DNA of 64,000 nucleotides from Candidatus Latescibacterota bacterium (GTDB lineage: Bacteria > Latescibacterota > UBA2968 > UBA8231). The position numbers and the translations under genes were made by a program. The DNA is taken from assembly GCA_965223905.1 (NCBI GenBank), contig CBDCXV010000002.1:1-64000 (forward strand). The letters are read 5' to 3'. Of this stretch, positions 14,810 through 62,821 are shown piece after piece (positions within the stretch are counted from its first letter, which is position 1; the number at the start of each line of letters is the position of its first letter). The notes under the pieces are model-generated. The model ran no database searches and was not told the origin of the DNA. It saw nothing but the letters and a program-made list of their open reading frames with translations.

Positions 14810-15709
14810 TCAAAAGTGCAGCGTGGCCACGGCGGACAAGCTGCCCCTCGGGTTCGGTGCCAAGCCGATAGAGAAACGGCGGGCTGCGGAGAACTTGCGC
14901 CACCATTCCGACGCCAGCGTTGCACCGACGACAGGGCCAATAAGGATGGATGGCCAGAGCACCTCTGGATTGGCAATCGTCAACCCATAGCCCCCTAATA
15001 GGCCCACTACACTGCCGCCCAGGGATACGCCTAGAGATTTGGTGAGAGACATCTTGGAGCGGTGACGTGGAAACGCATTGACGCCGATCGCTGTTCCGGC
15101 CAAATAGCCGAATACATGCCCCCCACAAACGAGGTCTGGACCATCACCGCAGTACGAGTCGCCTGTCACCATCCCCAGCATTCCAAAATAAGATCCGGTG
15201 ATCAGCTTGAGGGCAACCCATTTATCAGTACTCATGCCTCTGCTCTCCGCCAGACCATCCAGCGTCGTGCCGCTTACTGCATGGCTCGTATCCATCACCG
15301 TCAGGGTCTGAATTGGCGGTCCATCCGGCCGTACTCTCTGCATCCGCTCCGTCGCCCTCCGGGAAGGTGTCCCTACCAGGACCAGCGTTAGAATGCGCTC
15401 CAAGGCCATGGGTTTTTGCCTGCCATCTCGTCCTCGAGATAGGGTCAACGTCTCCGCATTGATGGCTTGGATGTAGCCTCGGGCGGTCTCCAGCCTTTCC
15501 CACTCTCCGGAAACCGGGTGCCGCTCCCCTTGCCCATGGATCACCACCGCAAAGGCGCCCACCTCCACCGTGCTGCTGTCGATCTGACCGCCTTTCAGAA
15601 TCACCCCTGCCGGCGGCGCCTCGGCGGCGTCACCAGTGGTCGCGTCAGCATGGTTGCCCCGTGAGAAGAGGGAAACAGCGGTGACGAAAAAAACAAAGAT
15701 GAGGCTCAT
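14810..15709 (-). CDS. Partner family A exported/membrane protein: signal peptide, conserved small beta domain, Gly-rich hydrophobic helices, C-terminal beta-hairpin ending in Phe
   Basis: ATG at 15709 follows GGAAGCAGGGAG. Motif IDSSTVxVGAFAVVIHGQGERHPVSGEW..L.T.RGYIQA is shared with the genes at 31690, 36362 and 38975. Tail RRFSIGLAPNPRGSLSAVATLHF. Confidence 0.85.
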   Translation of the reverse strand: MSLIFVFFVTAVSLFSRGNHADATTGDAAEAPPAGVILKGGQIDSSTVEVGAFAVVIHGQGERHPVSGEWERLETARGYIQAINAETLTLSRGRDGRQKPMALERILTLVLVGTPSRRATERMQRVRPDGPPIQTLTVMDTSHAVSGTTLDGLAESRGMSTDKWVALKLITGSYFGMLGMVTGDSYCGDGPDLVCGGHVFGYLAGTAIGVNAFPRHRSKMSLTKSLGVSLGGSVVGLLGGYGLTIANPEVLWPSILIGPVVGATLASEWWRKFSAARRFSIGLAPNPRGSLSAVATLHF

Positions 15710-15884
15710 ACTCCCTGCTTCCTTTTGCCAAGACGGGCCCGTGATCGAGTTCCCGCCCGACCTACCTTGGAGTCTGTTGTCGTACACGTGAAGTACCTAC
15801 ACCCACGAATCCGGCCTACCTCCCTCCCGCTCCCACGTCCACACCGTCGCCGATACTCCCCCATCCGGGCGCCCAGCGTCGCCC

Positions 15885-18800
15885 TCAGCTCCACCCCTCC
15901 CGCGGCGTCGCCGGGCGCACCGTCACCGTGCCCGGGCGGTCCACGTCGTCGTCGACCAGCCTCACCGTGGCGATCGCCTGAGTGCCTGCGCTCACCCCCA
16001 GCGGCAGATCCCCGAACCCCAACGTCACCTCCTCGTCGGCCCGGTCCGTATCCTCGGTCGCCGTGATCGTAAACGACTGCGCCGAGGCGCCGGGGCCGGG
16101 ACTGAAAAAGAGCGTGTCTACGATCCCCGGCCACGTCATCCTGAAGTCGCCCGTCAAGGGGGTTCGCGTGATCGGGATCTTCAGCAACCGGTGCGCCGGC
16201 GGCGTCATGTTCACGGTCACCGTCTTCGCCGCCCCCCCTTCTATCGCTTCATACCTCGAGAACTCATACGTCACCGTGCGCGGCACCGTCACGTCCTTCA
16301 AGGTCACCTGAGCGCTCGACGGCGGGCCCGCGCTCACCCCCGCAGGCAGATCCCCGAAGCCCAGCGACACCGTCTCGTCGTCCCCGTCGTCGTCCTCATT
16401 GGCCGTGAGCGTAAACGACCCGGTCGAGTCGCCCAAGGCGAACGACAGCCGCCGGATCCCGGCCTCTTCCGTCAGACCCTCCACCGTGAAATCGCCCGCC
16501 TCCGTGCCCGCATCGGCCGTCACCGTAACCGGAAACGACACCCCCCGGGTCGCCTTGGGCGACAAGGACACCTCCACCGGCACCGGCTCGCCCCCTTCCC
16601 GCGCCTCGTAGCTCGAAGACCCATAGGCCACCTGAGGCTGCACCGGCGTCACCAACACCGGATCCGTTAACACACCCTCCGCCGCGGCGGACTTCGCCCG
16701 CACCCTGAACAGATATTCCACCCCGTTCGTCAGGTCTTCTACCCGGATATACCGGATCCTTCGTCCCTCATACTCGATACGGGCCACCTCTCCGTCGGCC
16801 ACCTTGGTCCATTCCATCTTGGCCGGCCTCTTCCTTTTCCCGTAGCGCCAATGGGTAATGCTGGCATCGGCGGAAGCGTCCCATAGCAGCAGCACCGCCT
16901 CATGGTCCGGCCACACCTCGAAACCCGTCGGCGGCGGCAACATCACCCCACGGGTCGGCTCACTCTGAACAAATCGGGAATAGCTGCCCGCATCCGGCAC
17001 ATACCGCACCATCGCCCGCAACTGACGACCCAGATCCGCCCGCAACGGCGTGTAGCTGGCCGACTGGGACGAGCCCGGCAGATCCGACCAGGGCGCACTG
17101 TCGCTGTCATTCCGGCCCTGCCACTGCCAGCTCCCAGCGCTCACCCCCTCCAGCGAAGCCGTCAGTGCAACCCCCGGCTGCGGCCTCTTGGTGCTCAACG
17201 ACACCTCCTCATCGCAGTTGCTCAACGTGGTGTTCGTCATCGTCACCGTGCCCGACGTATGGGCCTGCACACAGCCACCCCCGTCCCGGATCGTGGCGCC
17301 GCTCAGATCGGCGCTGCCCCCGCTTTCCACCCGGATGCCCGACCAATCGGAGGGGGACGGGGAAACAGCATTGCTTGACCGGAAGGTGACCCCCGGGCCC
17401 GCGCCAAGCGTACCGGCCACGATCAGCGCCCCCGGGCTGAACGACACCTCCGTTCCCGAACCCAGGCTCAACGTCACCCCCGAAGGGATCGTCACCTCCC
17501 CGTCCACACAGACCGCGCCGCTCCACGTCGTATCCGACGACAGCGAGCCCGACCACTTCGGCGCCAACGCCAAAACCCGCACCGAGTCCCCGGCCGCCGC
17601 GGCGTTGCGCGCCCGAACCTCGAAGTAGTAGGTCGTGCAACTCCCCACCGACAGCGTCAGGCTCGTCGGCAGCGCCTCCTCCGGGGACGGCACCGCCGTC
17701 CAGTCCGACCACGTGCGCTCCCCGCCGCTCAATTGATAGGCGCCCTGACGATACTCATACCCCGTCAACGCCGTGCCCCCATCCGACAACGGCGCATCCC
17801 ACGAAAGCTCCACCTGACCGTTCGCACCCGACGCTTCAGGGCGCCGGGGCGGGTCCGGCGCCCCCCCCGGAGTCGCCTGAGCCCGCGACGAATCCCCTTC
17901 TCCCACCGCGTTGACCGCACGCACCTCGAAGGTGTACTCCGTGCCGTTGCTCAGGCTCATCAGCGTGTGGCTCGTTGTCGTCGAATCGCTGTCCGATATA
18001 TCCCCCCAGTCCGGAGACCACGTGCCGGCCCCGTCGCTGCTTTGCCGATACTCATACCCCGTCAGCGCTGAGCCGTTGTCCGCAGGCGTCTCCCAAGTCA
18101 ACACCACCTGACGGTCGCCCGGATCCGCCGACAGGTTACCCGGCGCATCCGGGACGTCGGGCAGCGTCACCTGCCGGGAGAACGAGACTGCTCCGGCCCG
18201 GTAGCTCCCCGCCGCCAGCTCGTAGACTCCCCGCACCTGGAACCCGTAGACTTCCCCGTTCGCCAAGCCCGTGACCGTGTGCGACGTCGTCGACGCCGTG
18301 CTGCCGGGCACGTCCTGCCACTCCCCCCACGAGCCGAGGCCCCGCTGCTGCCGATACTGCCACTCCTCGAGCCTGTCGTGGCCCGGGCTGTCCCAGCTCA
18401 GCGTCACCTGCTCGTCGCCGGCCTGCGCCCGCAGGGGAACCACCGCCACCGAGTCCGACGCCACGCCCGGCACCCCGTCCGCGTTGACCAGTCGCACCCG
18501 GATCTGGTGCACTACCGTGTCGGCCAGGCCCGACACCCGCACCGTGTCCCCGGCCGCCTCCACCCGCACCGAGGTCGCCGTCGCTCCATCACTGGAGGCG
18601 CCCCTGGCCCCGGATGCGCCGCTGGTCCCGGAGGCTCCACCCCCCGCCTCTCCATCTCCTGGCGCCCCGCTGAAAGGGGACGCGAGACGATAAGCCCCTA
18701 ACACGCCCCCGCTATTCACCAGAACCTCAAAATCGATCGGAAACGCAGGGCCGGAGTCCGGCGGGAGGTCGGGGTCGGAGTCGGGGTCCGGAAACGGCTC

Positions 18801-61734: not shown

Positions 61735-61946
61735 CACCATATTTTGTCCGCCGAGGTAGCCCCCATGATGCCCACGGGTTCCGGTTTCTGTACCTTGATG
61801 TCTCCCCACTTTCCTCCGGTCTCCTCGGTCAAGATCAGGATGGGCGAAAACATTTTGGCCAATCGGTCCTCATCCGTTTCTACTTGGGCCTCGGCTGCAA
61901 GGAGGGCAGCCAACATGGTAAGTACTGCACGGAAAATCAGGGACAT
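61735..61946 (-). pseudogene. About 70-codon stub of a fifth Vps62/NPP1-like head gene
   Basis: RBS AAAGGAG; MSLIFRAVLTMLAALLAAEAQVETDEDRLAKMFSPILILT...KPEPVGIMGA matches the first motifs of the four intact heads, then runs into the TolB-like remnant. Confidence 0.82.
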
Positions 61947-61963
61947 ATCAAATCTTTTCTCCT

Positions 61964-62821
61964 TTAAAACTGCAGTGTGGCAATCCCCCAAAGGCCACCC
62001 TTTGGGGTTGGGGCTATGGCAAGGGAAGTACGGTGATCTTCGGAAGGGTTGCGCCATATTTCAGAGGTGATGAGAGCGCTGAATTGGGGAATGACGAACG
62101 CCAACGGTAACCCGGTGTTCAGATCCAGTCCGGACTCGAGCAAGAAGACGCCGACCGCCCCCGGTATAACACCGGCGAGAAGGGTAACGGGCAAAGAATC
62201 ATATGGATCGACCGCGGTCACACCCAACGGGAATCCCACCGCACAGCCGGCAATCAAACCATAATAAACACTGTCCAACCCTCCCCAAGGGTCGTCATCC
62301 CCCTTTCGCTCCTCTTCGAAATAAGTAACATATAGAACAGCCGAAACCAAGGTAACAGCTGCTCCCGAAAGAGTACCAAAGACCAATTTGGTAGGAATTC
62401 GCCCTACGTGATGTCCGCCACCCAAGGCATGGATACGGTTACCTAAATAAACCGGTTTTCCGGCCTTTGCAGATTTGATAAAGGGCAAGTTTCTGTAGCC
62501 TTCAACAATAGCGGTTACGTTCTTTTCCGAAAGGAAACTCAGCCGAAACCGATGCCCGTAAAAGCCAGAAGGCATGCCATCATCGCGGTGTATTCTCATC
62601 AGTTCATAAACCGCCGAAAGGGAATCAAAATCGGCTATCCCGGTAACTGTCGTCCCCTTGGCAGCCGCCTCCTGCAGAGCCGCGGCCATCTGCTCGTTTC
62701 CACGGAGGTGGATGGTGATTTCTTTGGGCTCCTGCCTGGCAGCCTCATCCGTTTGGGCTTTTGCCTCTGCCGTAAGGAGGGCAGCCAAAACTGTAAATAC
62801 TGCAATGGAAATACAGGACAT
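61964..62821 (-). CDS. Partner protein: signal peptide + subtilase-propeptide-like domain + family A-type Gly-rich helical C-terminus ending in Phe
   Basis: TGIADFDSLSAVY...FRLSF....NV..IVEGYRNLPFIKSA resembles S8 prodomains. GVTAVDPYD and LAIAPTPKGGLWGIATLQF match family A tails. Confidence 0.75.
   Translation of the reverse strand: MSCISIAVFTVLAALLTAEAKAQTDEAARQEPKEITIHLRGNEQMAAALQEAAAKGTTVTGIADFDSLSAVYELMRIHRDDGMPSGFYGHRFRLSFLSEKNVTAIVEGYRNLPFIKSAKAGKPVYLGNRIHALGGGHHVGRIPTKLVFGTLSGAAVTLVSAVLYVTYFEEERKGDDDPWGGLDSVYYGLIAGCAVGFPLGVTAVDPYDSLPVTLLAGVIPGAVGVFLLESGLDLNTGLPLAFVIPQFSALITSEIWRNPSEDHRTSLAIAPTPKGGLWGIATLQF

Follow-up and report, generated by a model that had tools for sequence, protein, structure and literature searches.

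The 64,000-bp window analyzed here (G000:C2:1-64000, the start of contig CBDCXV010000002.1 of a Candidatus Latescibacterota bacterium) contains between positions 1 and 39000 five cassettes arrayed head-to-tail on the minus strand. The plan of a cassette is a small partner gene, a gap of 9 to 53 bp, and the gene of a giant surface protein with an N-terminal "head". With slightly better than even confidence, this region is interpreted as a modular cassette array that recombines among its paralogues, with the partner being an accessory of the adjacent head protein. Comparison of the DNA of the copies shows that the modules have different histories, and that the borders of the exchanged tracts are positioned at the junction between the linker of N-domain A and the tail of the partner and within the first 80 to 150 codons of the head.

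The genome is a metagenome-assembled genome (MAG) with a completeness of 93.6% and a contamination of 5.1%; the assembly comprises 7.9 Mb in 11 contigs with a GC content of 0.63-0.65. All genes relevant to the array are located on the minus strand, and the order of transcription is g5, then p5 followed by a headless remnant, p4-g4, p3-g3, p2-g2, and finally p1-g1. A sixth partner gene, p6 (62821-61964), is isolated from the array and is followed downstream by a remnant of the 5' end of a head gene and then by three PD40 propeller genes. The six partner genes start at the ATG codons that had been assigned to them from the sequence (15709, 22486, 31690, 36362, 38975, and 62821, minus strand). 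The features are as follows (GC3, GC content at the third codon position; ORF, open reading frame).

14810-15709, minus: p1, leader, N-domain A, linker, and four-helix tail with hairpin ending ...LHF; 53 bp upstream of g1
13407-14756, minus: head of g1, distant Vps62-like domain; GC3 of 0.37-0.52 in codons 1-400
965-14756, minus: g1, a 4502-aa frame (1248-14756) plus the ORF 965-2959 after a frame change
21683-22486, minus: p2, lipoprotein-type leader, small beta N-domain, and predicted 8-stranded barrel tail; AT-rich throughout
15885-21653, minus: g2 (1922 aa), head, neck, and partial stalk, without sorting domain
30086-31690, minus: p3, leader, two N-domains A, and four-helix tail ending ...LRF; C11 copy 99.2% identical
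22483-30048, minus: g3 (2521 aa), head, neck, and partial stalk; its end overlaps the start of p2
35334-36362, minus: p4, leader, N-domain A, linker, and barrel tail; identity to C11 breaks at about 35900
31716-35324, minus: g4 (1202 aa), head, neck, and short stalk, truncated towards the end of an FN3 domain
37956-38975, minus: p5, leader, N-domain A, and four-helix tail ending ...LRF; headless stalk-like DNA follows directly
36407-37938, minus: headless, frame-broken stalk remnant between p5 and p4
61964-62821, minus: p6, leader, unrelated N-domain, and four-helix tail ending ...LQF; 98.7% identical to G002
61740-61886, minus: remnant of the 5' end of a head (about codons 35-83) shortly after p6
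9900-11753, minus: stalk repeat X, copy in g1; 95.0% identical to 16287-18152, longest exact run 417 bp
16287-18536, minus: stalk repeat X, copy in g2; brackets p1-head1-neck1 together with the g1 copy
24757-27003, minus: stalk repeat X, copy in g3; 89.7% identical to the g2 copy
18025-19403, minus: stalk repeat Y, copy in g2; 92.9% identical to 22611-23997, longest exact run 465 bp
22611-23997, minus: stalk repeat Y, copy at the 3' end of g3; brackets p2-head2-neck2 together with the g2 copy
15513-15585, minus: 73-bp core of N-domain A, identical in p1 and the first copy of p3

Recombination tracts in partner and head genes

Contig C11 of the same genome carries a paralogous copy of window positions 30069-36921 (C11:2010684-2017666), and the identity between both copies changes along their length. 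It was 99-100% over 36865-35966, which contains the upstream remnant, the p4 leader, the A domain, and most of the linker, 72-95% over 35865-34884 with the barrel tail, the gap between partner and head, and the first 147 head codons, and 97-100% over the rest of the head, followed by a second divergent patch in the neck (33983-32924) and by 100% over p3, ending just past the p3 stop codon. The synonymous divergence (dS) rose from 0.00 in the first block to 0.17 and 0.14 in the divergent patch and dropped to 0.035 behind it, and the ratio of nonsynonymous to synonymous divergence (dN/dS) in the divergent patch was about 0.5. This jump in dS goes beyond merely faster protein evolution and indicates a recombination tract, which, judged from the positions of the transitions, starts at the junction of the linker and the C-domain of p4 and spans the gap between partner and head. 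The sharp transition after N-domain A, on which the original prediction of exchange had been made dependent, is present in this profile. Genes unrelated to the array follow the C11 copy of p3, encoding a BNR repeat protein, a PhyH protein, and a restriction enzyme.

A second tract contains p6. Window positions 62823-61738, p6 plus the head remnant, are 98.7% identical to the sister species G002, with both flanks being different, compared to an identity of 90.5% between these genomes at the rpoB locus. The shared block ends at about head codon 83. Thirdly, three runs of a second study yielded contigs that span positions 14389-15542, p1 plus the first 122 head codons, with 1, 9, and 1 differences, and that then extend by 217 to 230 letters without fitting the window at a likeness of 85%. 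Each of the three comparisons places the downstream end of the tract at head codons 80-150, just past the most conserved motif of the head leader. The contigs of run X1, the probable source, matched positions 12000-16200 with no difference in the longest listed pieces. In runs X3-X5, parts of 12987-13973 had no cover, which was given no weight, and a joint of 13520 to 14512 was disregarded because its short side comprised only 20 letters.

Exact identity was also found at shorter range. p1 is a mosaic when compared to C2:595.8k, and runs of 55 to 73 bp in the A core are exactly shared by p1, the first A copy of p3, and C2:595.9k. A second array in this part of the contig (L040, G000:C2:593000-612000) contains a p1-like partner and, behind it, a scar where the initial 15 bp of a head gene continue into part of a p3-like tail; further on, it contains a stalk gene, then two partners, and then a head.

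The stalk repeats Y and X are direct repeats that bracket p2-head2-neck2 and p1-head1-neck1, respectively. Their identity is 90-95%, and their longest exact runs measure 177-465 bp. Since kilobase repeats of the stalk are present on both sides of each cassette, a deletion or conversion between stalk copies would be an easier route, and the stalk repeats may offer a simpler way to swap whole cassettes. The exchange units visible in the comparisons appear to be smaller than was proposed before, reaching from the partner or its tail to the 5' part of the head.

Base composition and identity of the modules

GC3 was 0.29-0.55 in the heads and 0.77-0.89 in the stalks of g1-g4 from about residue 1000, and 0.61-0.80 in N-domain A, 0.47-0.64 in the helical tails, and 0.44-0.45 in the barrel tails of the partners. 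The opposite polarity of partner and head genes that had been noted from the sequence therefore holds at synonymous sites. The proposed AT-rich island of partner C-domain and head has to be restricted: the valley reaches into p2, p3, p4, and p5 but not into p1, the tail of which has a GC3 of 0.64 and is not AT-rich, with the drop occurring at the gene boundary at about 14800. On the side of the head, the change of GC3 is a gradient over about 800 codons, without a step. Similarly, the flank formed by N-domain A is indeed GC-rich but not strongly conserved, with the five window copies being 70.1-85.5% identical in their DNA and the longest exact shared run being 14-28 bp in 9 of the 10 pairs and 73 bp for p1 and the first copy of p3. 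Likeness among the window copies of the partner tails and of the heads was barely detected by blastn. Heads are AT-rich at all 11 loci of relatives, with a GC3 of 0.30-0.49 whatever the composition of the host, which indicates that a low GC content is a trait of this family and no mark of a recent arrival.

Partner proteins and their predicted folds

The combinatorial architecture that had been claimed for the partners was borne out by tblastn homology and by structure predictions, and the combinations are wider in other genomes. Each of the six partner ORFs has an N-terminal hydrophobic leader. N-domain A is common to p1, p4, p5, and p3, which has it twice (E of 1e-26 to 5e-37 in tblastn searches with the domain of p5), and occurs 15 times with at least 84 residues in the genome, 5 of these in the window. 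The helical tail is common to p1, p3, and p5 (E of 2e-11 to 4e-11) and, weakly, to p6 (E of 9e-5); the C termini in p1, p3, p5, and p6 are LHF, LRF, LRF, and LQF, and the final Phe and a V-D-P-x-D loop are conserved to at least 90% in an alignment of 58 relatives of this tail. The tails of p4 and p2 are homologous (33% identity, E of 1e-16). Other genomes add a leucine-rich repeat with A and a helical tail (P0075, P0081), a tandem pair of helical tails (P0013, P0055, P0072), two A domains with a third kind of tail (P0073), and a beta-helix N-domain with a helical tail (P0095), with a similar N-domain connected to a barrel (P0101). Because of these module combinations in the window and in other genomes, both tails behave as interchangeable anchors. 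In P0046 from another MAG, the head leader is present through ...PEPVEIVGA... and gives way, right behind the conserved PEPVEI motif, to N-domain A and a helical tail in one protein, possibly a natural chimera of head and partner or a mis-assembly.

The AlphaFold2 model of p5 had a mean predicted local distance difference test (pLDDT) score of 72.6, with 82-96 over most of the length of its two domains and less than 50 in the linker. It contains a small beta-barrel at residues 37-113 (pLDDT above 90), a disordered linker, and a tail with helices at 192-219, 227-252, 258-274, and 289-309 and a hairpin at 319-337. In fold searches with p5, only N-domain A was matched, by Hfq and GerQ (Sm/SH3-like, Z of 7-8.6, a level that is common for such folds), and the helical tail was barely probed. 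The model of p2 (pLDDT of 79) is composed of a small beta N-domain and eight long strands, which were matched to the OmpA transmembrane domain, NspA, OmpW, and OmpX with Foldseek E values of 1e-5 to 1e-3. The tail of p2 and p4 is thus predicted to be an 8-stranded, OmpA-like barrel. The leader of p2, ...FSLGC|AAPMTE, contains a Cys that recurs with AAPMTE among members of the family; its spacing is one residue off the classical lipobox, and p2 may be a lipoprotein. The prediction for the N-domain of p2 is likewise a small beta domain, possibly a diverged form of N-domain A; comparison of both by hhalign yielded a probability of 23% and an E of 9e-4.

Nothing usable was found in the Pfam and NCBIfam scans with the partners and their separate domains. 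No Pfam outer-membrane barrel family, including OMP_b-brl, matched the barrel tail of p2 and p4 at E up to 10, and the N-domain of p6, which had been described as propeptide-like, had no match in Pfam or NCBIfam. The helical-tail family comprised 95 clusters in a word-indexed search, with "hypothetical protein" from a Candidatus Latescibacteria MAG as the sole name, and the barrel family had 24 representatives among 1.84 billion proteins. Two relatives, P0002 and P0003, share 79-80% identity with p5, and the gene of one is on a contig of 1.02 Mb.

Giant proteins and their export signal

The giant proteins are composed of a head of about 420 residues, a beta-helix neck, and a stalk of FN3, Calx-beta, and cadherin-like domains, the latter identified by Pfam, which had no match in the first 450 residues. 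An alignment of 15 heads contains 56 invariant positions, including F-Y-P-x-N-x3-N-x-H-E-G-D-W. A word-indexed search with the head found 38 relatives, 2 of them with PF06101 (Vps62). The matched region of P0153 exceeds the PF06101 cut-off (23.9 versus 22.1 bits), and the head alignment matches P0153 over 275 columns with an hhalign probability of 99.3%. Because of this match to a protein that is itself above the cut-off, the heads are assigned by profile comparison to a distant Vps62-like domain, while those of g1-g4 did not reach the PF06101 gathering score in the Pfam scans. The PDB sequence-profile search with the head alignment yielded only chance matches to antibodies, the Atlas search with the head nothing usable, and no toxin family matched the head in profile searches. 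Part of an article on the insecticidal protein GNIP1Aa treats its partial Vps62 region as an accessory domain for target recognition (PMC8624791), and a passage in another one likens the Vps62 peptide "HVGDWEH" to the heptapeptide of NLP cytolysins (PMC13159263). A binding role of the head would be in line with these passages. P0152-P0154, distant Vps62-like relatives of the head, are fused in one chain to membrane domains, either a barrel-like C terminus ending ...VRF or a multi-helix membrane domain; no relation of the partner barrel to the barrel-like C terminus of P0152 was found by hhalign.

Among g1-g4, only g1 reaches a sorting domain of the T9SS (type IX secretion system). Its C terminus (ORF 965-2959) matched TIGR04183 with 23.6 bits at a cut-off of 23 (E of 3.9e-5), which is a T9SS type A sorting domain. 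This domain is in a different frame from the first ca. 3,800 codons. The frame changes within an array of 288-bp FN3 units (window 1567-4440; shifted copies 89.5-95.6% identical) by a one-frame shift at about 2960, possibly a genuine break and possibly an error of the assembly. The genome encodes a T9SS, with SprA at 607.6 bits and PorU at 617.4 bits. The PorU model had 51 matches in the genome, all but three of them within its last ca. 135 positions (about 940-1094), as would be expected of ORF ends resembling sorting domains; in the window, matches of this sort were found only at 1010-1426 and none in g2, g3, and g4. These three genes stop in the middle of a domain where the next partner gene begins: g2 is truncated about 10 residues into a repeat domain, and the end of g3 is a degraded FN3 domain, overlapping with the p2 start.

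Linkage and co-inheritance of partners and heads

Fourteen head loci of relatives were considered. Of these, 7 have a partner-like gene immediately upstream and 4 have one immediately downstream, while the DNA examined contained none in the other 3. A head tree with 20 rows was built by a quick method with SH-aLRT (approximate likelihood ratio test) support only, on a small sample with related rows. Clade I (5 rows) has helical tails in four rows, with only a p6-like N-domain detected upstream in the fifth (G002b); of the 8 rows of clade III, 5 have barrels, 2 have A plus helical tails, and 1 is without a partner; and in the clade of a second bacterial family (7 rows) the partner is downstream or undetected. 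Sister heads may have different partners: g1 is accompanied by A plus a helical tail and C10:551k by a lipoprotein-type domain plus a barrel, and g2 by a lipoprotein-type N-domain and g4 by an A N-domain. Judged from this tree, co-inheritance of the type of the partner tail and the head is not strict.

At four loci of the second family (L028, L029, L031, L036), the head is internal and the partner downstream, with closely similar ends, ...DMDLNGDGTI.... The related head protein P0131 has a Pfam Dockerin_1/EF-hand match. At two loci of this family, a different neighbor of 377-407 aa also ends in a hairpin, ...LTFNF.

Evaluation of the possible explanations

The evidence is best accommodated by an array whose paralogous cassettes would recombine homologously with each other as it evolves. 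An upstream head, together with its partner, would be put onto an exportable stalk when copies of the stalk repeats undergo deletion or conversion. Less firmly, the partner would be an accessory of the adjacent head protein, an anchor or a holder that is attached to the outer membrane and faces the periplasm. Since one of the two tails is predicted to be an outer-membrane barrel, both tails may place the N-domain at the outer membrane and on its periplasmic side. This function as an outer-membrane accessory is favored because of the conserved linkage, the interchangeable anchors, and the membrane fusions in distant relatives of the head, and is a best guess derived from the sequences.

Several observations weigh against this explanation. 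Some partner genes, at C10:182-187k and C10:574k, have no head nearby. No population variant showing a swapped head was seen. The genes g2-g4 have long intact frames with a dN/dS of 0.28-0.5, so that they may work as they are instead of being stored cassettes. Errors of assembly may account for the frame change in g1 and for the broken frames of the C11 copy and, with 5.1% contamination of the MAG, C2 and C11 could represent two strains and not two loci. A positive cluster ahead of the first helix of the helical tail, read from the sequences, does not fit a simple inner-membrane topology, without proving an outer-membrane one. A prediction of the complex of the g2 head (31-520) with mature p2, run without controls, scored 0.00 and 0.02 at a mark of 0.32 and counts neither for nor against the explanation.

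The original prediction had assumed that the partner C-domain and the whole head form a single unit, replaced in one step by crossovers in N-domain A and in the stalk. Part of this stands: the tract begins at the junction of A-linker and tail, crosses the gap, and enters the head, the exact runs of 55-73 bp in the A core of p1, the first copy of p3, and C2:595.9k agree with it, and so do the helical tails of clade I (4 of 5 rows, the fifth tail being undetected) and the mostly barrel-type tails of clade III (5 of 8). The second breakpoint, however, was located inside the head in 3 of 3 comparisons, at codons 80-150, and not in the stalk; most copies of N-domain A make a poor substrate for crossing over with each other, the longest exact run being only 14-28 bp for 9 of the 10 pairs; sister heads have different types of partner (g1 and C10:551k, g2 and g4); and the tail of p1 is outside any AT-rich island. 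Replacement as one unit is therefore unlikely. No strain was found with the whole island replaced between the same two flanks; the same-genus genomes G001 and G002, which contain no orthologous array, carry no weight in this. Alternatively, head and partner may be a co-evolving pair of effector and protector under diversifying selection, with a harmful lipid- or glycan-binding head being neutralized by the periplasmic partner. The tight coupling of the partner upstream of the head with gaps of 9-53 bp, the extension of the divergent tract over both genes, and the N-x-HEGDW motif of the head, given the resemblance to NLP cytolysins drawn in part of the source cited above (PMC13159263), would fit such a pair. 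It is nevertheless very unlikely: a dN/dS of about 0.5 with a raised dS in the tract indicates import and not positive selection, the head matches no toxin family, partners exist without heads, and one and the same N-domain A accompanies heads of very different kinds. There is also little chance that no special exchange took place at all, with looser constraint and amino acid composition explaining divergence and AT-richness and the mosaics being assembly artifacts. The low GC content of the heads as a family trait (GC3 of 0.30-0.49 in 11 of 11 relatives) and the contamination of the MAG agree with this explanation, which does not account for dS values of 0.00, 0.14-0.17, and 0.035 along one and the same pair of copies, for the short-read contigs of X1 that match 12000-16200 with no difference in the longest listed pieces, or for a p6 block with 98.7% identity at an rpoB identity of 90.5%, found in a separate, single-contig genome.

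Comparison with known systems

In the orphan arrays of contact-dependent inhibition (CDI) and Rhs systems, a full-length gene is located beside truncated modules with a variable tip, a small cognate gene, and a shared repeat. The truncated modules in the window likewise share repeat DNA with the full-length gene. Unlike in CDI/Rhs, the polarity is mirrored, with the variable part being N-terminal and the small gene upstream; the orphans are upstream and have their own starts and leaders; the tips belong to one homologous, Vps62-like family instead of being unrelated toxins; and the small gene encodes a predicted membrane protein instead of a cytoplasmic immunity protein. A C-terminal toxin with a downstream immunity gene, as in CDI/Rhs systems, was not found here. 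In a mirror-image orphan-cassette system, the head-partner cassettes would be stored upstream of the only stalk with the T9SS export signal as a means of surface variation, and recombination would set the displayed head and its cognate anchor, using as exchange sites the stalk repeats and the short conserved cores in N-domain A and in the head leader. The partners would then be a new class of outer-membrane anchors, with beta-barrel and helical modules interchangeable in function, that hold the N-terminal leader of the head. As a complete model, this is rather unlikely.

SprB is a giant T9SS adhesin with a cargo-specific outer-membrane partner, SprF, of the PorP/SprF family. The array resembles this pair in having a very large FN3-type protein with a T9SS sorting domain beside the gene of a small barrel, and differs from it by the 8-strand predicted barrel, the upstream position, the extra, presumably periplasmic domain, and the type A sorting domain. 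Neither TIGR03519 nor any other NCBIfam family was found in p2, p4, and p5 at E up to 1, and TIGR03519 had no match in a search of the whole genome, though the controls also matched nowhere. The predicted fold of the p2/p4 tail is similar to that of the OmpA transmembrane domain, NspA, OmpX/Ail, and OmpW (TM-score of 0.41-0.65 on the targets); different from those proteins, the tail represents a rare family without a Pfam match and is fused to a putatively lipidated or an A-type N-domain. The heads share the motif FYPFND-x-N-x-HEGDW with Vps62 (PF06101) but score below PF06101 in Pfam and are placed at the tip of a bacterial T9SS stalk. Like Glycine-zipper proteins (Gly-zipper_YMGG), the helical tail is composed of Gly/Ala-rich helical hairpins, and one nearby Atlas cluster has PF13441 on 18% of its members, which is a lead only; unlike those proteins, the tail has no Pfam Gly-zipper match, four helices, the conserved loop VDPHDRF, and a hairpin at the C terminus whose last residue is F. 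A narrow literature search, on type IX secretion in Latescibacteria and separately on Vps62, listed no paper with such an array in its title or at the start of its abstract.

Other genes in the window

Upstream of the array, positions 39814-56792 contain the giant genes g5, g6, and g7, whose N-terminal domains are different ones: g6 and g7 have polysaccharide lyase 14, and g5 has a weak match of the reprolysin-like type. A stalk segment is 94% identical between g5 and g6 (42914-44199 and 49228-50516), and another is 83% identical between g6 and g7 (49834-51404 and 54997-56585). These shared segments suggest a swapping of heads on shared stalks beyond the Vps62-like heads. A 1.57-kb repeat at 56578-58147 encodes a 475-aa protein without a Pfam match and resembles an insertion sequence; copies with 96.6-96.7% identity are present at C11:1060265, C10:207829, and C10:352257. 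The three tandem PD40 beta-propeller genes after the p6 module (58668-61460) are 81-87% identical to each other.

Biological meaning

To our knowledge, giant T9SS adhesins outside the Bacteroidota have hardly been studied, and we know of no route described for the diversification of their binding tips. The partners form a rare, uncharacterized family of membrane anchors whose genes are linked to a Vps62-like head in two bacterial families, and pieces of partner and head, as judged from their identity patterns, move between loci, strains, and species. If there is no reservoir of heads, the partners would still be a new family of predicted outer-membrane proteins. If the upstream cassettes are a reservoir for the switching of heads, the array would be an N-terminal counterpart of the CDI/Rhs orphan arrays and would provide a testable model for surface variation in an uncultured lineage.

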